From positions 1,440,001 to 1,472,000 of the forward strand of contig LT962688.1 in the NCBI GenBank assembly GCA_900234795.1: DNA of 32,000 bases, written 5' to 3'. Shown here piece after piece: positions 5,163 to 29,158 of this stretch. A program made the translations under genes and the position numbers. The notes beneath the pieces were generated by a model. It worked only from the letters and a program-made list of their open reading frames with translations. It did no database searches and was not told where the DNA came from. Numbering within the stretch: position 1 is the first letter of the stretch; the number at the start of each line of letters is the position of its first letter. The stretch is from Methylorubrum extorquens (GTDB lineage: Bacteria > Pseudomonadota > Alphaproteobacteria > Rhizobiales > Beijerinckiaceae).

Positions 5163-6638
5163 ATGTCTGTTGTCAGCGCGAGCGCCGATGTCCGCAACCT
5201 GGACATCGACGGGGATACGCTTCGCGAGGAATGCGGCGTCTTCGGCATCTACGGGCACGACGACGCCTCGGCCATCACGGCGCTCGGCCTGCACGCCTTG
5301 CAGCATCGTGGCCAGGAGGCAGCCGGCATCGTCTCCTACGACGACGGCGTGTTCCACTCGGAGCGCCGCCAGGGCCTCGTCGGGGATTCCTTCTCCGACC
5401 GCGCCACGATCGAGCGGCTGGCCGGCCGCTCGGCCATCGGCCACGTGCGCTACTCGACCACCGGCGGCACGATTCTTCGCAACGTCCAGCCGCTCTTCGC
5501 CGAACTCGCGGGCGGCGGGCTGGCGGTGGCGCATAACGGCAACCTCACCAACGCGCTGTCGATCCGCCGCGACCTCGTGCGCGACGGCGCCATCACGCAA
5601 TCGACCTCGGACACCGAGGTGATCCTCCATCTGGCCGCCCGCTCGCGCAAACCGCGCATCGTCGAGCGCTTCATCGACGCGCTGCAGCAGATCCAGGGCG
5701 CCTACGCCATCGTCGCGCTGACCAACAAGAAGCTCATCGGCGCCCGCGACCCGCTCGGTATCCGCCCGCTGGTGCTCGGCGAACTCGACGGCCGCTACAT
5801 CCTCGCCTCCGAATCCTGCGCGCTCGACATCATCGGCGCCCGCTTCATCCGCGACGTCGAGAACGGCGAGGTGGTGGTGATCTCGGAAGAGGGCGTCGAG
5901 TCGATCCGCTTTGCCGAGAAGCAGCCGATGCGCCCCTGCATCTTCGAGTACATCTACTTCGCCCGCCCCGACTCGGTGGTGAACGGCAAGAGCGTCTACG
6001 GCGTGCGCAAGGCCATCGGCCAGGAACTCGCCCGCGAGGCGGCGCCGGAGGCCGACGTGGTGATCCCGGTGCCGGATTCCGGCGTACCGGCGGCCCTCGG
6101 CTTCGCACAGGAGGCCGGCCTGCCCTTCGAGATGGGCATCATCCGCAACCACTATGTCGGGCGCACCTTCATCCAGCCGACCCAGACCGTGCGCGAACTC
6201 GGCGTGCGGATGAAGCACTCGGCCAACCGCGCCGCGGTCGAGGGCAAGCGCATCGTGCTCGTCGACGACAGCCTCGTGCGCGGCACCACTTCGGTGAAGA
6301 TCGTGCGGATGATGCGCGATGCCGGCGCCCGCGAGGTGCATTTCCGCATCGCCTCGCCGCCGATCACGTATCCTGACTTCTACGGCATCGACACGCCCGA
6401 GCGCGAGAAGCTCTTGGCCGCCACCCACGACCTCGAGGGGATGCGCCAATATATCGGCGCCGATTCGCTGGCCTTCCTGTCGATCCCCGGCCTCTACCGG
6501 GCGATGGGCGAAGAGGCGCGCAACGCCGACTGCCCGCAATACACCGACCATTGCTTCACCGGCGACTACCCGACCGGCCTGACCGATCTGGCGATCGCCG
6601 GGCCCAAGCGCTTCGCCATGCTGGCCGAGGCGGACTGA
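5163..6638 (+). CDS. purF: amidophosphoribosyltransferase
   Basis: 491 aa. Ntn-amidotransferase nucleophile Cys in EECGVFGIYGH after a short propeptide, PRTase motif RIVLVDDSLVRGTTS and C-terminal Fe-S cysteines (CPQYTDHCFTGDYP). Confidence 0.97.
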   Translation: MSVVSASADVRNLDIDGDTLREECGVFGIYGHDDASAITALGLHALQHRGQEAAGIVSYDDGVFHSERRQGLVGDSFSDRATIERLAGRSAIGHVRYSTTGGTILRNVQPLFAELAGGGLAVAHNGNLTNALSIRRDLVRDGAITQSTSDTEVILHLAARSRKPRIVERFIDALQQIQGAYAIVALTNKKLIGARDPLGIRPLVLGELDGRYILASESCALDIIGARFIRDVENGEVVVISEEGVESIRFAEKQPMRPCIFEYIYFARPDSVVNGKSVYGVRKAIGQELAREAAPEADVVIPVPDSGVPAALGFAQEAGLPFEMGIIRNHYVGRTFIQPTQTVRELGVRMKHSANRAAVEGKRIVLVDDSLVRGTTSVKIVRMMRDAGAREVHFRIASPPITYPDFYGIDTPEREKLLAATHDLEGMRQYIGADSLAFLSIPGLYRAMGEEARNADCPQYTDHCFTGDYPTGLTDLAIAGPKRFAMLAEAD

Positions 6639-6643
6639 AGTCG

Positions 6644-7387
6644 ATGGCCGACAAGATCCTCGACGGTCGGGTGGCCGTCGTCACCGGCGCCTCGCGCGGC
6701 ATCGGCCGCGCCGCCGCGCTGGCTCTGGCGGGAGCCGGCGCCCACGTCGTCGCGGTCGCCCGCACGCAGGGCGGCCTGGAGGAACTCGACGACGCGATCC
6801 GCTCCGCCGGCGGCCACGCGACGCTGGTACCCCTCGATCTGACCGATTACGACGCCATCGACCGCCTGGGTGCGGCGCTCAACGAGCGCTGGGGCCGGCT
6901 CGACATCGTGGTCGGCAATGCCGGCATCCTCGGCAACCTGATGCCGGTCAGCCACGTCACGCCGAAGGTGTGGGATCAGGTGATGGCGATCAACGTCACC
7001 GCCAACTGGCGTCTGATCCGCTCGTTCGACCCGCTGCTCCAGCGCTCGGATGCGGGACGCGCGATCTTCGTCTCCTCGGGCGCGGCCGCGAAATGCCGGG
7101 CCTATTGGGGGCCCTACTCCGTCTCGAAGGCGGCGTTGGAGGCGATGGTGCGCACTTACGCCGCCGAGAACGAGAGCACGCGGGTGCGCGCGATGCTGCT
7201 CAACCCCGGCCCGTTGCGCACGAGCATGCGCTCGGCGGCGATGCCGGGCGAGGATCCGGCGACGCTCAAGACCCCGGAGGAGCTGGCGCCGCATTTCGTG
7301 CGCCTCGCCTCCCCCGCATGGAACGAGACGGGCAAACTCTACGATTTCCCCACCGACCGGGTTCTCGCCTTCTCCGCCCCCCAGTAA
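6644..7387 (+). CDS. short-chain dehydrogenase/reductase (SDR) family oxidoreductase
   Basis: ATG at 6644, 5 nt after the purF stop; 247 aa. Rossmann motif TGASRGIG, VGNAG, and catalytic YxxxK (YSVSK). Confidence 0.9.
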   Translation: MADKILDGRVAVVTGASRGIGRAAALALAGAGAHVVAVARTQGGLEELDDAIRSAGGHATLVPLDLTDYDAIDRLGAALNERWGRLDIVVGNAGILGNLMPVSHVTPKVWDQVMAINVTANWRLIRSFDPLLQRSDAGRAIFVSSGAAAKCRAYWGPYSVSKAALEAMVRTYAAENESTRVRAMLLNPGPLRTSMRSAAMPGEDPATLKTPEELAPHFVRLASPAWNETGKLYDFPTDRVLAFSAPQ

Positions 7388-7459
7388 CGGGGTCCGGGGC
7401 CAAGGCCCCGGCGGGTTTACGGGCAGAGCCCGCTTTCTTTGTTTTCCAGGTTTCGCGCC

Positions 7460-23237: not shown

Positions 23238-23296
23238 GACCGATAGATAGGCCTCGCGGCCCTTCCGTTCCAACGCAAGGCCACCATTCGCGACGA

Positions 23297-24348
23297 TCAG
23301 GGCAGATTGTAGACCTTGGCGAGATCCGGATCCTTCTCGGCCACGAGCCGGGCGAGATCGACGATGACCTTGGCCTGCTTCCAGGTGGCGTCGTCCTGCA
23401 TCTTGCCGTCGATCATCACCGCGCCGGTGCCGTCGGGCATCGCCTCGACGATGCGGGAGGCGAAGTTCACCTCGGCCGGGTCGGGGGGCGAACACGGTCT
23501 TGGCCAGGGCGACTTGGCTCGGATGCAGGGTCCAGGCGCCGGCGCAGCCCATCAGGAAGGCGTTGCGGAACTGCACCTCGCAGGCGGCCGAGTCGGAGAA
23601 GTCGCCGAACGGGCCGTAGAACGCCTTGATGCCGTTGGCCATGCAGGCATCGACCATCTTGGCGATGGTGTAGTGCCACAGATCCTGCTGGGCGGACGCC
23701 CGCTCGGCATCGCCCTTGGGATCGGACAGGACGCGGTAATCCGGGTGGCCGCCGCCAACGCGGGTGGTCTTCATGCCGCGGGAGGCCGCGAGATCGGCGG
23801 GTCCGAGGCTCATGCCGTGCATGCGCGGCGAGGCGGAGGCGATGGCGTCGACGTTGGCCACGCCTTCCGCGGTCTCGAGGATGGCGTGAACGAGGATCGG
23901 CTTCGTCACGCCGTGGCGCGCCTCGAGCTGGGCCAGCAACTGGTCGATGTAGTGGATGTCCCAGGGGGCCCTCGACCTTCGGCACCATCACCACGTCGAG
24001 CTTCGCGCCGACCTCGGCGACGATGGTGAACAGGTCGTCGAGGATCCAGGGCGAGTTCAGGGCATTGATGCGCGTCCACAGGCCGGTGCCGGAGGCCGCG
24101 AAATCGGTGGCGCGGGCCATCTCGACGAAGCCCTTGCGCGCCGCCTCCTTCTGGTCGGCGGGGACCGCGTCCTCCAGGTTGCCGAGCACCACATCGACCG
24201 TCTTGGCGAGTTCGGGCACGCGGGCGCGGACCTTCTCGTTGTGCGGCGGCACGAAGTGGATCATCCGCTCGAGCTTGATCGGCAGTTCGCGGAACGGCTC
24301 GGGCGCACCCGCGGCGAGGGGCTGGAAGAAGCGGCGCGGCAGTTTCAT
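23297..24348 (-). pseudogene. mcl: HpcH/HpaI-family malyl-CoA / beta-methylmalyl-CoA lyase-like protein (~349 aa), carrying two frameshifts (probably sequencing errors)
   Basis: Three frame segments join into one protein. They read [23 protein letters not shown]...[10 protein letters not shown] | [34 protein letters not shown]...[14 protein letters not shown] | [61 protein letters not shown]. The junctions lie at G5 (23964-23968) and G6 (23483-23488) runs. Removing one base at each gives 1050 nt. From memory, the joined sequence closely resembles the ~348-aa Chloroflexus-type Mcl. Confidence 0.85.
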
Positions 24349-24854
24349 CGGCTCTCGGTCTCCGGCTGCGCGAAGGGCCGTGGCGTCGGCCCCCCGCTTA
24401 TGCCCTTGGCGTTAGAGCACGGCGCCCCCCGGCGTAAAGCCGACCTTGGTCCTGCCCTCGGCCGTGTGATCGGCCCAAGAGACAGGCGATGAGACGCGCG
24501 ATCCCCGATCCGGCGGATCGTGCGCCCGCGCACGGCACGAACCCGCTCCCGCATACGGACCCGCATCACCCATTGGCGATCCACCCGTGGAATATCCGAA
24601 AGCGAAGATTGCGTGGTGAGCCAAATCATCCGACACTTCCCAAGATTTCAGAAGTCTTCATCAAGGTCTTTCTCGTTTTCGCCGCTTCCGCCGGGATGCC
24701 AGGACAGGCGGCAAGGGTGCGCGCGGGACGAGTGAAACGGCAAAGCTTGCCCGGCGCAGCATTCGGCGCCGGGCAGTCGGGACGGAACGGACCGCCCCGA
24801 CCCGTGTTTTCCGGCCGAGGCGGGCTGTCGAACATCGTCGGGAGACGTACGTCG

Positions 24855-26150
24855 ATGCCAAAACTGTTCAACGAACCGATCATGCGGACTTTTCCGTCCG
24901 GCCCACGCGGGGGCGGGGCCTTGGCCGGCGTGCTGCTCGCGCTCGCGCTGTCCCAGGGGGCGATGGCCGGACCGGCGAAGAAGCCCGCCGACGCGCGGCC
25001 GGACTACACCGCCGCCCAGGCCGCGACCGCGCAGCCCGAGGGCCTGCCGGCCTCGGTGCGGATCGCGGGCGACGACACGCGTGCGTTCCAGGCCCTGATC
25101 GACGGGGCGCCTCGCGCCGCCGATCCCTGGCTGGTGCTCTCCGGCGGCGGCGAGAACGGCGCGTTTGCCGCCGGCCTGCTAGCGGGCTGGTCGGAGCGCG
25201 GCGACCGCCCCGAGTTCGGCGTCGTCACCGGCGTCTCGACCGGCGCGCTGATCGCCCCCTTCGCCTTTGCGGCGCCGACGCTCGGCGAGCGGGCCGACGC
25301 GGCGCTTCGCGAGAACTACACCGAGATTTCGGCCGCCGACGTGTTCGAGTTCGGCGGCACGCCGGATTCGCTGACCGACACGTGGCCGCTCAAGGAGCGG
25401 ATCGGGCGCGCGGTGACGCCGGCCCTGCTCAAGGCGGTGGCGGCCGAGCACGCCAAGGGCCGCCGTCTGCTGATCGCCACGACGCAGGTGGACAGCGAGC
25501 GGCCGGTGGTGTGGGACATGGGCGCGATCGCCCAGCGCAATGCCGAGACCGGTGATCCGCGGGCGCTGGCCCTGTTCCGCTCGATCGTGCTCGCCTCGAC
25601 GGCGGTGCCTGGCGTCTTCCCGCCGGTGGCCATCCCCGCCGAAGTGAAAGACGGAGCCAAAGCCAAGCCCTTCGCGGAGCTGCACGACGACGGCGGGGCG
25701 ATGGCCCCGTTCTACCTCGCGCCGGCCGCCGCCCTGGAGGGGGAGACGCGGCTGCGCCTGCCGACGAACCGGGTCTATCTCGTCGTCAACAACCGGCTCG
25801 AGCCGGAATTCCAGATGGCCTCGCGCACCACGCTCTCGGTGCTCGGCCGCACCATGTCGGCGGCGATCAAGGCACAGACCCGCGCGGTGCTCGCGCTCAC
25901 CAAGGGCTATGCCGCGCGCACCGGCCTGGATCTTCGGATCGCCCTCATCGACGGGCGCTTCGCCAAGACCTCGGAGAAGCCGTTCGACCAGCCCTACATG
26001 AAGGCGCTGTTCGCCCACGGCGAGGCCCTGGCCCGCGACGGCAGCGCTTTCGCTCAGGCCCATCCGCCCGCAACAGCCAAGGGGCCGGACCTTGGCCCCG
26101 ACCGGCGCGCGGTGACGGAATCGACCGGCTCCGTCGCAGCCTCGCGCTGA
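24855..26150 (+). CDS. secreted patatin-like phospholipase
   Basis: ATG at 24855 (SD GGAG about 10 nt upstream; alternative ATG 24885). Signal peptide ...GGGALAGVLLALALSQGAMAG. Patatin motifs are present: LSGGGENGAFAAG (oxyanion GGGxxG), GVSTGA (GxSxG nucleophile) and HDDGGAM (DGG catalytic Asp). Confidence 0.85.
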   Translation: MPKLFNEPIMRTFPSGPRGGGALAGVLLALALSQGAMAGPAKKPADARPDYTAAQAATAQPEGLPASVRIAGDDTRAFQALIDGAPRAADPWLVLSGGGENGAFAAGLLAGWSERGDRPEFGVVTGVSTGALIAPFAFAAPTLGERADAALRENYTEISAADVFEFGGTPDSLTDTWPLKERIGRAVTPALLKAVAAEHAKGRRLLIATTQVDSERPVVWDMGAIAQRNAETGDPRALALFRSIVLASTAVPGVFPPVAIPAEVKDGAKAKPFAELHDDGGAMAPFYLAPAAALEGETRLRLPTNRVYLVVNNRLEPEFQMASRTTLSVLGRTMSAAIKAQTRAVLALTKGYAARTGLDLRIALIDGRFAKTSEKPFDQPYMKALFAHGEALARDGSAFAQAHPPATAKGPDLGPDRRAVTESTGSVAASR

Positions 26151-26282: not shown

Positions 26283-26816
26283 CTATGCCTCTTCCGCATC
26301 GGCCGGGGCGTAGACGGCCTCGCCCAGGCGCTTCAGCGGGCCGCCGGGGCCGGAGCGCTTCCAGAGCCGGGTGTTGAGCGCCGCCACCGGATCCTGCCCC
26401 GGCAGGGAAAAACCCTGCTCGCTGATCCGTGCCAGAATCTCGCTCGCATGCATCGGGCGGCCCGCCTCCTCCAGGACGGCGAGCACCGCCTCGATCAACG
26501 CCCGGCCGTAGCGACGGGCGAGCACCGTCTCCGACAGGCTGACCTCCCCCTCGGCCGGCACGGCAAAGGCCGGCACCGGAGGTCTCTGGGGCGCTACGGC
26601 GGCCGGCGCTCGAGCCGGTTGCGGCGTGGGTTCCGGAACGGGGATGGGGGCGTCCGCTCGTGCGTCCGGCGAGGGCTGAGCGGGAGCGGCCGGGCCGCCG
26701 AGGCGTCGGCCGAGATCGAGGTAGAGGAGGAGATCGGCGATCTGCCGCTCGATCGCGTCGCGCTGCCGACGCAAAGCCTCCAGCCGCGCCAGAGCCTCGG
26801 CTTCCGACAGGACCAT
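26283..26816 (-). CDS. coiled-coil protein with a C-terminal HARE-HTH-like winged-helix domain (hypothetical)
   Basis: 177 aa with SD AAGGA 8 nt before ATG 26816 and high GC3. The N-terminal amphipathic helix (SEAEALARLEALRRQRDAIERQIADLLLYL) is followed by a Pro/Ala-rich linker. The C-terminal block LIEAVLAVLEEAGRPMHASEILARISEQGFSLPGQDPVAALNTRLWKRS...LKRLGEAVYA fits the HARE-HTH pattern as I recall it. Confidence 0.6.
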   Translation of the reverse strand: MVLSEAEALARLEALRRQRDAIERQIADLLLYLDLGRRLGGPAAPAQPSPDARADAPIPVPEPTPQPARAPAAVAPQRPPVPAFAVPAEGEVSLSETVLARRYGRALIEAVLAVLEEAGRPMHASEILARISEQGFSLPGQDPVAALNTRLWKRSGPGGPLKRLGEAVYAPADAEEA

Positions 26817-26822
26817 GCTGGC

Positions 26823-26941
26823 ATTCCTTACCGTTCATTCCCAAAGAGGGGAATTTCTCGGAATGGACAATGCCATGGAATAGATGGGAAGGCGAGTTCT
26901 TTTTATTCCATCCAGTGTGTTCTCTGATCGGAATATGGAAT
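26823..26941. promoter_or_regulatory. GGAAT/ATTCC motif cluster upstream of the HTH gene
   Basis: GGAAT starts at 26850, 26860, 26877, 26930 and 26937. ATTCC starts at 26823, 26837 and 26905. An inverted pair is formed by ATGGAATA (26875-26882) and TATTCCAT (26904-26911). The stretch is locally AT-rich and contains no credible ORF. Confidence 0.35.
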
Positions 26942-27210
26942 GGAAGGCACACGGTGAACCAGCGCGATGGACGCCTGTTTGAGCGCGGCTTACGGGCCGC
27001 CACCCCGCGTGCCGAGGCGCCGAGCCACAACGCGCGACCTCGAAGCGGGCCGGAACAGCTCTCCAAGGGAAGAAGCGTCGCGGCGTGCTTCGAGGCGGCT
27101 GTCGCACCACGTCGGCAAGAAAGGCTTTCAGGGTATCGGAACAGGCGGATCATACGGCCCCGAAGAGGGAATGAACCGTTCCCCGGCTGGGGAAGAAGTC
27201 TTCCTTCGTC

Positions 27211-27295
27211 GGAATATTGGAATATTCCGTGCTACCTAAACGACGGGGATAGGCGCACGGAATATTCCGAAACCCGAAATCCCGAAAAAATCCCG
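27211..27295. repeat. two copies of the perfect palindrome GGAATATTCC, an extra half-site, and CCGAAA-type direct repeats
   Basis: GGAATATTCC occurs at 27219-27228 and 27259-27268 (40-nt pitch), with a half-site GGAATATT at 27211-27218. CCGAAA / CCCGAAA / CCCGAAAAAA follow at 27267-27290. All lie immediately downstream of the repA stop codon. Confidence 0.6.
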
Positions 27296-28393
27296 TTAGG
27301 CGCGGGCCGCAGCGGTCGCCGCGCGCGCGGTGCGGGCGGCTTTGGGCGGCACCAGCAGGCTGCCGGGATCGGCCGGGTGGAGCAGCATGCCGCCCTCGTC
27401 GAGGTCGATCCGCAGCCGCGGGAACACCTCGAGCAGGCCGGCGAGATCCGCCTTGAAGGCCTGGCGGAAGCTGCGCAGGCTGGCGTTCTCGGCGCCGAAC
27501 TGGCGGTGCAGGTTGTCCCAGGTCAGCCGCAGGGGGCGCTGCAGGGCGCGCAGGCGGTAGCCGGTCCAGAACAGGAGGTCGAGCTTGCGCGCCGAGCCGG
27601 AGAAGGCCCGCGCGGCGCGGATATCGACCGGCAGGGCATGCCGGATCAGGCTGTCGTAGAAATCCTGATGGAACGAGACGGTGCGCTGCCAGACGAGGCC
27701 GTCATCGCCGCGCCGCCACAATTCGAGCTGGCGGAAGGGCGGCACGTTGAGGGTCGAGGCCTGCCCCTCCCCGTCCCACAGGCCGAGCTGCATCGAGCAG
27801 GCGGCGAGCCGGTTGAGCTGTTCCTTGAAGGCGCCGATGGTGCCGCGCTCGCCGCCGGTGACGGCGAACCCCATGGCCTTCATGAAGCCTGAGAGGCTGT
27901 CGGCGACCTCAATGGTCGGGCTACGCTGGCGCACCGCCTCGGTGCAGAGGTGCAGCAGCACGAGCCGGGCCTTGGGGCCGTAGGGCAGGCCCTGCAGCTC
28001 CATCTCGCCGGTGATCGGGTTCTTGAGGCGCCCCGCCGAGAGGCTGAGCGAGTTGCGGCCGTATTCGCGCACGAAGTCGCGGGCGTCGCCGGGATCGCGG
28101 TAGGGCAGGCCGCAGAGCGCCAGCACCGAGTGCAGGTGCTGGAGGTTTTCCGGGCCGGTGGGCTCGCTCTCGATCACCTCGCGCACGGCGTCGCGGCGGC
28201 GGCGGTCGCGGCCCATGGCCTCGCGGGCCTCGGCCTGCGCCCCCTCCTGGGCCCGGGCGGCGTCACGCTCGCGCTGGCGGAACAGCAGGTGCTCGACGAT
28301 CGGCGCGAACAGGAACCCGCCCCGCGCCGCCTCCAGCTCCGCCTGCAGATCCGGGTCGCGGATCGCGGCGATCTTGGCCTCAAGCCCCGACAT
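27296..28393 (-). CDS. repA: plasmid/ICE-type replication initiator protein RepA
   Basis: 365 aa. The central block LQGLPYGPKARLVLLHLCTEAVRQRSPTIEVADSLSGFMKAMGFAVTGGERG matches the recalled conserved core (PYGxxxRLxLxxxxTEAVRxxS...SLxxFMxxxG) of 'replication initiator protein A' family proteins. Iterons lie directly upstream. Confidence 0.85.
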   Translation of the reverse strand: MSGLEAKIAAIRDPDLQAELEAARGGFLFAPIVEHLLFRQRERDAARAQEGAQAEAREAMGRDRRRRDAVREVIESEPTGPENLQHLHSVLALCGLPYRDPGDARDFVREYGRNSLSLSAGRLKNPITGEMELQGLPYGPKARLVLLHLCTEAVRQRSPTIEVADSLSGFMKAMGFAVTGGERGTIGAFKEQLNRLAACSMQLGLWDGEGQASTLNVPPFRQLELWRRGDDGLVWQRTVSFHQDFYDSLIRHALPVDIRAARAFSGSARKLDLLFWTGYRLRALQRPLRLTWDNLHRQFGAENASLRSFRQAFKADLAGLLEVFPRLRIDLDEGGMLLHPADPGSLLVPPKAARTARAATAAARA

Positions 28394-28620
28394 CGCCTGC
28401 CCTCAAGGCCTCCCGCTGCGTGTCACGTCGTGTTCGCCTTCATCCAAGCCTCGGGCTCCGGACGGAATCGTCGGAGGACCCTCAGGGCCGCAACCGATCT
28501 GTCACGATTCGGCTCCGCGGAGTCCCGTGGCCTTTCGGAGTTTTCCCGGGAATCCACGCTTGGACGGCCGAGTCCTGCACAGGCGCGTCTTCCGCGATCG
28601 GAGGAGGGGCGGATTCCGGT

Positions 28621-28860
28621 CACGCAGAGTTCCATACGCCCGCCGGCCGGCCCGAATCCGCCTGCGCAGAGTTCAATACGCCCCCTGCATGTCCCCTCGC
28701 TCCGGACTTGTCCCCGCTCTTCCCCGGCCAAACCGGTTTTGCACGCTGAATCCGGTACGGGCCCACGCAGAATCCGATGCAACAGGCCCCGTCGGTTGCG
28801 CAGAATCCGATGCGGGGCTGCGCAGAGTTCGATGCGGTTCCGCGCAGAGTTCCATGCGCG
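28621..28860. repeat. iteron array (7 copies of a 17-nt unit), candidate oriV
   Basis: The unit is CGCAGA(G/A)T(T/C)CNAT(A/G)CG. Copies start at 28623, 28665, 28744 (degenerate), 28766, 28799, 28821 and 28843, with spacings of 42, 79, 22, 33, 22 and 22 nt. Track ORF 28423-28872 reads through them, giving the RIELCA repeats. An AT-rich tract follows at about 28990-29035. Confidence 0.8.
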
Positions 28861-29158
28861 AAGGGGTCTCAAGCCACGGGAGGATCACGGCTTTTCCGCC
28901 TCCCCTATAACCTGCTGAACTGACTCCCTGAGAATCCCTAACAGATAGCTTTCCTAGGGAGGGTGGAGCTGCGTTCGCCAAACCGAACGAGGGCTTTTTC
29001 TCTTCTTTTCAAAAGGAATACACGGAATTTTGCACAGGCTGTACCCCTTCTCTCCCCGATCGAGAGCCCGCGAAGCGGCGCTGCGCGGCAGCGGCGGACG
29101 GTCTATGAGCGGTGGCTTGGCTGAGGCCGGGCTTCCGGCGGGATGGGGCGAAAGAGCG

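Follow-up and report, generated by a model that had tools for sequence, protein, structure and literature searches.

The 32-kb stretch of the Methylorubrum extorquens genome analysed here (the window) carries, among ordinary chromosomal genes, a cassette made of repA, a gene coding for a replication initiator of the RepA_C family, and of a non-coding region where seven iterons, a cluster of GANTC (CcrM) methylation sites and an AT-rich tract are laid out as in the replication origin (oriV) of a plasmid. The reading that we favour, tentatively and with somewhat less than even confidence, is that the cassette derives from a RepA_C/iteron plasmid replicon captured long ago, fixed in the chromosome, vertically inherited and maintained by selection, whose most likely role would be that of an auxiliary or conditional origin under tight gating. 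By the textbook, a bacterial chromosome is a replicon with a single origin. Origins of plasmid type are known in chromosomes as accessory islands or as sporadic Vibrio fusions; here the cassette is kept throughout a whole genus complex. In plus-strand coordinates, the order is a gene for a HARE-HTH protein, a spacer, repA, the oriV region (Table 1) and mazG. Read from its far side, the cassette is ordered as a DnaA-box-like site, the AT-rich tract, a GANTC block, five phased iterons, two further iterons, a GANTC-bearing promoter region and repA; in Methylobacterium and Methylorubrum, GGAATA repeats followed by the HARE-HTH gene complete this end.

The protein and the type of origin are already known, as they belong to the RepA_C/iteron replicon family. 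RepA matches Pfam RepA_C (PF04796) with 65.6 bits for a cutoff of 26 (E 8.9e-18), residues 137-293 covering profile positions 2-180 of 181. Helical in an N-terminal part of roughly 76 residues, the protein continues with two winged-helix-like domains. When an AlphaFold 2 model built from 32 homologues (pLDDT 79, pTM 0.65) is submitted to Foldseek, the best match in the PDB is with domains 2-3 of RctB from Vibrio cholerae (E 1.3e-5, probability 1.0, template-modelling (TM) score 0.42-0.53), and RepE54 of plasmid F is matched with a probability of 0.96 and a target-normalised TM score of 0.51. As modelled, RepA shares with RctB and RepE54 the twin winged-helix fold of iteron-binding initiators. 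A sequence search of the PDB with RepA gave no relative, and scans of RepA and of the HARE-HTH protein against NCBIfam, PHROGs and PADLOC returned no match. The gene is annotated as RepA in public records, where entries named 'Plasmid replication protein RepA [Methylorubrum extorquens]', on contigs of 5.6-5.7 Mb, are identical to the protein of the window. The ratio of nonsynonymous to synonymous substitution rates (dN/dS, Nei-Gojobori) of repA within Methylorubrum is 0.02-0.17. This is similar to that of rimO (0.00-0.20) and hspQ (0.05-0.16), and below that of the HARE-HTH gene (0.23-0.43), of a patatin gene (0.15-0.32) and of a GGDEF gene (0.23-0.47), mazG being left out of the comparison; repA is thus a core gene under housekeeping-level constraint. 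Its reading frame is unbroken in all loci, with a dN/dS of 0.02-0.31. The supplement of PMC10689784, consulted for essentiality data, has no entry for repA.

The iterons form a compact array. A search of the window for the unit CGCAGARTYCNATRCG, with at most one mismatch, retrieves six copies, all on the plus strand and all within 28623-28858; in shuffled sequence 0.02 copies are expected, and six were reached in 0/100 shuffles. A seventh copy, at 28744, occupies a conserved in-register slot in all related loci and is therefore a real variant iteron. All seven share one orientation; the five distal ones are spaced by 22-33-22-22, multiples of 11, and the two that are proximal to repA lie 42 apart and 79 from the phased array. 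In the sense of repA the consensus reads CGYATYG[G/A]ANTCTGCG. For comparison, one genome was taken per species, which returned 23 loci. The run 22-22-33-22 (repA sense) is found in 21 of 22 loci, including that of Microvirga sesbaniae, and the two extra iterons follow, in the same orientation, about 57-81 nt downstream in that sense and then 31-42 nt apart. Elsewhere in the window and in the fetched flanks, a few isolated core matches are all that was seen.

Density in GANTC is the next conspicuous property of the region. Twelve sites are packed in 470 bp, where local composition predicts 2.5, and elsewhere in the window there are about 0.8 per 500 bp, making a roughly 12-fold density. Each of the 22 loci examined has 7-12 sites per 800 bp upstream of repA, against a background of 1-2, and a pair 14 bp apart, about 58-195 nt upstream of the ATG, recurs in all 20 Methylobacterium/Methylorubrum loci. 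Within the iterons, position 10 (G or A) alone decides whether a GANTC is present. The slots of iterons 1 and 2 have one in 5 and 7 of 21 loci, those of iterons 3, 4 and 5 in 19, 20 and 21 of 21; in the slots that bear it, the N base varies (T, G or C) and GA.TC is kept.

Beyond the iterons, positions 28995-29034 make the most AT-rich 40-mer of the window (70% AT vs 30% overall), and the tract is AT-rich at all orthologous loci, extremely so in low-GC metagenomic relatives. An earlier note on this DNA, drawn from its letters and open reading frames (ORFs), had singled out the initiator gene, the iterons and the AT-rich tract, though not the GANTC cluster, the DnaA-box-like 9-mers or the HARE-HTH gene with its GGAATA repeats, and it withstands scrutiny on the minus-strand ORF of 365 aa with its core peptide, on the spacing of the last five iterons, on the AT-rich maximum beyond them (which it put at about 28990-29035) and on the plasmid-type rep / iteron / AT-rich layout, to which family, fold and cognate iterons all testify. 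Two details have to be amended: the protein, which it placed in the RepA/RPA 'replication initiator protein A' family, is indeed an initiator, of the related family RepA_C instead; and the iterons are indeed seven, one of them degenerate, with a unit that has, as written, 16 nt and not 17.

Nine-mers with at most two mismatches to the DnaA box TGTGGATAA amount to 2.5 per 800 bp upstream of repA, for a background of 0.47, a five-fold excess, and they all have one orientation and conserved positions. One of them stands at the outer edge of the AT-rich tract in every Methylobacterium/Methylorubrum locus, and matches 8 of 9 bases in several Methylobacterium species. At the position matching 28542-28558, about 100 nt upstream of repA, Microvirga has TCTGGATAA and the low-GC relatives, where clear DnaA-like boxes lie between iterons and repA, have TGTGGATTT/TATGGATAA. 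In many relatives the gap between iterons 5 and 6 holds TGGGGACAA; in M. organophilum it holds TGTGGAAAA. We consider these elements as probable rather than proven DnaA boxes, because the copies of the window are weak. Strict DnaA boxes (at most one mismatch) and CtrA sites (TTAA-N7-TTAA) are both absent from the region, and no IHF consensus was found by eye in the conserved block. This block, at 28904-28956, is recognisable in Microvirga and resembles a TATAACYTGC/GANTC segment that stands beside plasmid iterons (CATATAACTTGCT in plasmid L046). On the repA side, conservation in an alignment of nine species extends over 28505-28558, with GACTCC and CGAATCG (repA sense) as invariant columns, and the segment 28505-28526 is a putative methylation-sensitive part of the repA promoter or operator. 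The block at 28904-28956, the palindrome at 28972-28989 and the AT-rich tract stand out as conserved in that alignment too. A sigma-70 promoter scan gave no hits, which is uninformative in a high-GC genome. At about 28513-28527, GGACTCCGCGGAGCC resembles inverted half-iterons in Methylorubrum; across the genus, only GACTCC and CGAATCG are invariant.

Table 1. Coordinates of the cassette, its sites and its partner gene within the 32-kb window
Feature	Position	Strand	Description
HARE-HTH gene	26283..26816	-	177 aa; N-terminal coiled-coil-like region; C-terminal HARE-HTH domain (Pfam PF05066)
Spacer between repA and HARE-HTH gene	26817..27295		479 bp; 8 GGAATA/TATTCC motifs, several as CGGAATATTCCG palindromes
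repA	27296..28393	-	365-aa ATG ORF; RepA_C-family initiator
Cluster of 12 GANTC sites	28465..28936		Spans promoter region, iterons and conserved block
Promoter-proximal conserved block	28505..28526		Two GANTC 14 bp apart: GATTC 28506, GAGTC 28520
Twin DnaA-box-like element	28542..28558	-	Candidate; repA sense CGTGGATTC..CCGGGAAAA; partly conserved; window copies weak
Iteron 7, repA-proximal	28623..28638	+	CGCAGAGTTCCATACG; no GANTC
Iteron 6	28665..28680	+	CGCAGAGTTCAATACG; no GANTC
DnaA-box-like 9-mer between iterons 5 and 6	28708..28716	-	repA sense CGGGGACAA; 3 mismatches to TGTGGATAA; conserved position
Iteron 5, degenerate variant	28744..28759	+	CGCTGAATCCGGTACG; GANTC inside
Iteron 4	28766..28781	+	CGCAGAATCCGATGCA; GANTC inside
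Iteron 3	28799..28814	+	CGCAGAATCCGATGCG; GANTC inside
Iteron 2	28821..28836	+	CGCAGAGTTCGATGCG; no GANTC
Iteron 1, distal	28843..28858	+	CGCAGAGTTCCATGCG; no GANTC
Most conserved non-coding block	28904..28956		CCTATAACCTGCTGAACTGACTCCCTGAGAATCCCTAACAGATAGCTTTCCTA, 53 bp, two GANTC sites
Palindrome CGTTCG-N6-CGAACG	28972..28989		Paired GTCC/GGAC changes in some species
AT-rich tract, putative DNA-unwinding element	28990..29036		Two GGAAT motifs; ends in DnaA-box-like TTTTGCACA at 29028-29036

The kinship with plasmids extends from the protein to the non-coding DNA. A tblastn search with RepA against 72,556 plasmids matches 1076 records, all below 60% identity, and the best of these are annotated RepA genes on 16-30 kb plasmids of Xanthobacter, Mesorhizobium and Neorhizobium (Hyphomicrobiales). 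Proteins that are 60-64% identical belong to operons where parA and a gene for a ribbon-helix-helix (RHH) protein precede repA, with MobA and TraG as neighbours, on plasmid contigs from metagenomes. These plasmid-type relatives carry iteron arrays of their own, downstream of repA. In the oriV of the Xanthobacter plasmid, ACGCAGACTTGGTGGCGC is repeated ten times; in plasmid L046 the repeat is ACGCAGAGTCGCCTACGC, present six times with spacings of 65-22-33-22-22 and followed by a GANTC-bearing AT-rich tract, and the iterons ACGCAGAGTCGCCTACGC and ACGCAGACTTGG of plasmid origins resemble those of the window. The plus strand of the window has the same order as L046, with CGCAGAG.. iterons, CCTATAACCTGCT accompanied by GANTC sites, and the AT-rich tract. 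Order, spacing and motif being shared, the chromosomal region is close enough to be the counterpart of a plasmid oriV; the match in 22-33-22-22 spacing rests on L046, the sole plasmid examined closely. Overall, the RepA_C iteron plasmids (Xanthobacter dioxanivorans unnamed4, NZ_CP063366.1; Neorhizobium pNCHU2750e, CP030833.1; L046; L049) code for initiators of the same family, 44-64% identical over nearly their full length, and have, as the cassette does, iterons of 16-18 nt with a common CGCAGA core; L046 adds to this the phasing and the tract with TATAACYTGC. They differ in having parA and a small RHH protein (or parAB) upstream, mobilisation genes, and an oriV that lies downstream of repA on the same strand. 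By contrast, the cassette has its repA inverted relative to oriV, which is the main rearrangement, a GANTC-bearing promoter region of its own, no par genes, a link with the HARE-HTH gene and a fixed chromosomal locus. Furthermore, all six iterons of L046 contain a GANTC, whereas in the cassette only slots 3-5 regularly do.

A second RepA is found in Methylobacterium indicum. This paralogue (L028 7545-13220; AP024145.1, about 3.95 Mb), 63% identical, belongs to a parA-parB(RepB)-repA operon in a 6.55-Mb chromosome. After it come about 2 kb of non-coding DNA, with a GANTC-rich block and with iterons CGTAGGCAACTCGGCG that point both ways; adjoining genes code for Y-family polymerase (IMS) and DnaE2-type domains. 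The paralogue locus has the look of a plasmid or chromid replicon that became integrated, separate from the core cassette.

Several observations place the cassette in the core genome. The order of mazG (divergent) and repA is kept in 18/18 Methylorubrum/Methylobacterium loci that include the upstream flank, and the HARE-HTH gene follows repA in 17 of these, the contig of the 18th ending first. The identity of RepA drops with taxonomic distance, from 91-99% in Methylorubrum to 73-82% in Methylobacterium and 68-70% in Microvirga. The locus is carried by main-chromosome contigs of 5.2-6.5 Mb. On four long contigs repA lies at 0.32 of 5.61 Mb, 1.33 of 5.88, 2.76 of 5.45 and 3.31 of 5.21, coordinates that are not comparable because the start points of the records are arbitrary. 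The GC content of the cassette is native, with no anomaly. A Pfam scan of the ORFs of the window identifies radA, ubiE, ubiB, coaBC, an arginase, an AcrB pump, a GGDEF protein, hspQ, an mcl-like gene, a patatin, mazG and rimO, all ordinary chromosomal functions, and reveals no integrase, excisionase, relaxase, type IV secretion system (T4SS), par (ParA/ParB), tra or transposase domain over the 32 kb; there is no tRNA gene in the window either. The earlier note had already perceived such housekeeping flanks devoid of integrase, par, tra and transposase genes. It had deduced an integrated mini-replicon or the stranded module of a plasmid or of an integrative and conjugative element (ICE), and of this the plasmid derivation stands; the recent or accessory insertion does not, given the fixed locus, the native GC, the lack of mobility genes and the low dN/dS. 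The presence/absence polymorphism that this idea called for is not seen: the cassette is strictly syntenic and conserved in all sampled Methylorubrum/Methylobacterium species whose flanks were recovered, which is half of what the earlier note had said would speak against it.

Neighbours vary in some lineages, SpoU being one of them in M. persicinum. In Microvirga the cassette exists alone, as oriV and repA. That of Microvirga guangxiensis (L020) lies between two tRNA-Arg genes (anticodons ACG, 5182-5258, and TCT, 7345-7421), with NDUFS4 also a neighbour, and that of M. sesbaniae is next to ChaC and an aldo-keto reductase. The two Microvirga species have no shared flanking synteny and only the roughly 2-kb cassette in common, so that the conserved unit is oriV plus repA, regardless of the surroundings. 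No mobility genes stand beside the Microvirga copies. The bracketing tRNA genes and the unshared flanks hint that the cassette was relocated there or captured independently. As a separate observation, Methylobacterium sp. HMF5984 has, about 8 kb downstream of its chromosomal repA, a pair of genes for ParA (235 aa) and an RHH protein (105 aa) (L026 18913-19921), of the type found ahead of repA on related plasmids; the window has no such pair.

The HARE-HTH gene is the regular companion of repA. It lies downstream in nearly all Methylobacterium/Methylorubrum loci, and directly after repA in low-GC metagenomic relatives; of 265 hits to its product, all the named orthologues come from Methylobacterium or Methylorubrum. 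The spacer between the two genes, with repeats of the form GGAATATTCC, holds 8/10 of the GGAATA/TATTCC motifs of the window, another being at 29015. Similar enrichment is found in nearly all Methylobacterium/Methylorubrum loci, mostly with 2-8 motifs per 800 bp vs about 0-0.2 elsewhere; this enrichment and the HARE-HTH gene are both absent from both Microvirga loci. The motifs are probably binding sites of some regulator, and the HARE-HTH protein is the suspected ligand. That it may have a role at the origin is speculation. No prior description of the core status of the cassette, of its slot-specific GANTC pattern or of the HARE-HTH/GGAATA link was found in the open-access literature, an absence which is weak evidence.

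Known systems each resemble the cassette in part. Salmonella genomic island 1 (SGI1) has a RepA_C initiator, 17-bp iterons, a putative DnaA box and AT-rich regions, and both rep and oriV are required for its replication, which causes incompatibility with, and loss of, helper IncC plasmids (PMC7433901). It is likewise a RepA_C initiator with iterons resident in a chromosome. Yet it is a mobilisable accessory island with integrase and att sites, which replicates only after an excision triggered by a helper IncC plasmid, whereas the cassette has no excision or mobility functions and belongs to the core genome. In Vibrio, the iterons of RctB contain methylation sites, Dam methylation being required for the replication of chromosome 2 (PMC2865523), and natural single-chromosome strains of V. 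cholerae carry ori1 and ori2 on one molecule (PMC6284228). RctB/ori2 thus offers methylation sites within iterons as well as the best structural match, by its domains 2-3; RctB is, however, much larger, its control involves 39-mers, crtS and a dedicated parAB2, its methylation is by Dam (GATC) and not by CcrM (GANTC), and the fused-chromosome strains are sporadic isolates, while the cassette is the conserved state of a whole genus. The repABC replicons, plasmids or chromids of the same bacterial order, have GANTC-rich origins and promoters, which are presumed to link them to the CcrM/CtrA cell cycle (PMC6090056). They differ by an unrelated initiator, RepC, an origin inside repC, a control by counter-transcribed RNA and RepAB, and no iteron array. 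Among the traits of secondary chromosomes and chromids, methylation sites within the origin are present here; a separate replicon and partition genes are not.

Archaea provide another parallel. In Sulfolobus, oriC3/WhiP is an extrachromosomal replicon, with its initiator gene beside the origin, that was captured as an additional chromosomal origin. Such multi-origin chromosomes belong to another domain of life and use other initiator families, and origin activity is demonstrated there, whereas for the cassette we infer it.

How might the cassette work? RepA monomers would load onto the seven iterons, which all point the same way, and would open the AT-rich tract jointly with the DnaA of the host, seated on the flanking boxes. 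CcrM methylation would confine the synthesis of RepA, its loading, or both, to one part of the cell cycle, the gating sites being presumably the three central iterons and the two invariant GANTC of the promoter, hemimethylated upon passage of the fork. The locus would then behave as a tightly gated auxiliary or conditional chromosomal origin. We prefer an auxiliary origin because an autoregulatory or transcription-factor role needs no full plasmid-like origin architecture; conservation of origin-specific cis elements makes firing more plausible, not less. A bolder proposal is that chromosomes of Methylobacterium and Methylorubrum, possibly also of Microvirga, use a second, plasmid-type origin fired by RepA and licensed once per cycle via CcrM, with the HARE-HTH protein, whose presumed GGAAT sites lie in the AT-rich tract and in the spacer, as lineage-specific regulator. 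This we deem unlikely; if true, it would make a conserved, naturally bi-origin bacterial chromosome, and might relate to the absent GC skew of M. extorquens.

A number of points weigh against an auxiliary origin. Firing is an idea that we infer from beginning to end. To a bacterium, a second origin that is always active usually carries a cost; Rep proteins also repress their own synthesis, and could be recruited as regulators. Par genes are absent beside the cassette, the DnaA-like boxes of the window have 2-3 mismatches, and an inverted half-iteron operator of the pPS10/F/pSC101 type does not appear to be conserved in the nine-species alignment. The low-GC relatives have no GANTC enrichment, so that the methylation wiring would appear to be specific to Methylobacteriaceae. 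In a crude neighbour-joining tree, the Methylobacterium/Methylorubrum RepA proteins group with two low-GC metagenomic relatives that carry the HARE-HTH partner; since those of Microvirga are nearer to plasmid clades, the tree cannot separate one capture from two. Finally, cumulative GC skew within the window shows no inflection at the repA locus, but the chromosomes of M. extorquens reportedly have no GC skew, their oriC being placed at dnaA by convention (PMC2680597), which leaves this test powerless in either direction.

The alternative that competes most seriously with an auxiliary origin, possible though in our view rather doubtful, is a domesticated regulator that does not fire: RepA on its iterons would be an autoregulated, methylation-sensitive transcription factor, a titration sink or a cell-cycle sensor, with repA itself, the divergent neighbour, the HARE-HTH gene or other sites of the genome as possible targets. 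To be sure, purifying selection and fixation show that there is a function without telling which one, iteron Rep proteins are well-known autorepressors, there are neither par genes nor a skew signal at the locus, and the iterons sit in the divergent promoter region between repA and mazG. Besides, the two invariant GANTC of the presumed repA promoter recall methylation-controlled alphaproteobacterial promoters (PMC6090056). However, five phased plus two iterons, an AT-rich tract and DnaA-like boxes in a plasmid-like arrangement exceed what autoregulation needs; the upstream neighbour varies by lineage (mazG, SpoU, tRNA, ChaC), so that control of mazG is not the conserved role; and, isolated core matches aside, no extra iterons were seen elsewhere in the window and fetched flanks. 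Quite improbable is plasmid exclusion, where chromosomal RepA and iterons would handcuff or titrate incoming plasmids of the same family, common in Methylobacterium, and block their establishment. Related replicons do circulate in the same hosts (the parA-parB-repA paralogue of M. indicum; the parA-RHH-repA plasmids, at 60-64% identity), plasmid and chromosomal iterons share the CGCAGAG / ACTC.GCG core, and the replication of SGI1 is incompatible with its helper plasmids (PMC7433901). But an arms race predicts diversifying selection, and RepA and its iterons are under strong purifying selection; the variable iteron halves differ (TTCCATACG in the chromosome, TCGCCTACG in plasmids); M. indicum has both the core-type orthologue (two draft genomes) and the plasmid-type paralogue (a complete genome); PADLOC has no match for RepA or the HARE-HTH protein; and a conserved AT-rich tract with DnaA-like boxes would be needless.

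At the other extreme, the chromosomes of Methylobacteriaceae might depend on the RepA/iteron origin as their primary or co-primary one. The conventional placing of oriC at dnaA in M. extorquens, with no visible GC skew (PMC2680597), would leave room for this, as would a cassette conserved as strongly as a core gene; we nevertheless hold it to be very improbable, as the genomic context of the cassette differs between lineages, dnaA is present in these genomes (PMC2680597), and the neighbourhood in the window is unlike the conserved alphaproteobacterial origin. The two remaining possibilities are hardly credible. Recent integration of a mini-replicon, or an ICE or plasmid module stranded in an accessory island, would agree with the plasmid-like type of replicon, with the existence of integrated RepA_C elements such as SGI1, and with what is seen in Microvirga, namely a position between two tRNA genes in M. 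guangxiensis and the lack of shared flanks between two species. For Methylorubrum and Methylobacterium it is largely refuted by the same locus in all sampled species with recovered flanks, by an identity that tracks taxonomy, by native GC, by the absence of integrase, relaxase, T4SS and transposase, and by a housekeeping-like dN/dS. As for an inert relic, the slowly decaying remnant of a dead plasmid, for which the missing par genes and the weak DnaA-like boxes of the window might speak, it is contradicted by the conservation data: an ORF unbroken in all loci with a dN/dS of 0.02-0.31, iteron number, phasing, orientation and GANTC pattern kept across genera, and many invariant columns in the non-coding blocks.

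Whichever function is at work, the cassette has consequences. If it fires, the genetically tractable M. extorquens would have a natural, conserved two-origin chromosome; if it does not, an initiator together with its entire origin would have been turned to a different, cell-cycle-linked role. In practice, chromosomal genes annotated 'plasmid replication protein RepA' can mislead pipelines meant to detect plasmids, and the cassette might interfere with Methylobacterium vectors or be exploited for them.

Some further observations concern single features of the window. The palindrome at 28972-28989 is flagged as terminator-like, but its T-run is not conserved. A small RNA or attenuator running from the TATAAC element to this hairpin was considered and rejected: with 13 species, RNAalifold finds support for no more than a 4-bp stem, the highly conserved 45 nt have no structure, the T-run lacks conservation, and Rfam has no match anywhere in the window. 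Next to the HARE-HTH gene, a patatin-like phospholipase gene (24489-26150, plus strand), syntenic only in Methylorubrum, matches phospholipase effector models of PADLOC weakly (E 1e-8). The mcl-like gene, at about 23270-24348 on the minus strand, has two single-base insertions in runs of C, at about 23968 and 23487, when compared with three related loci (L001, L002, L008), and is split over three frames in the window, while the frame is uninterrupted in L008 (361 aa). This is due either to homopolymer assembly errors or to a pseudogene, a warning that further indel errors may exist in the sequence of the window.

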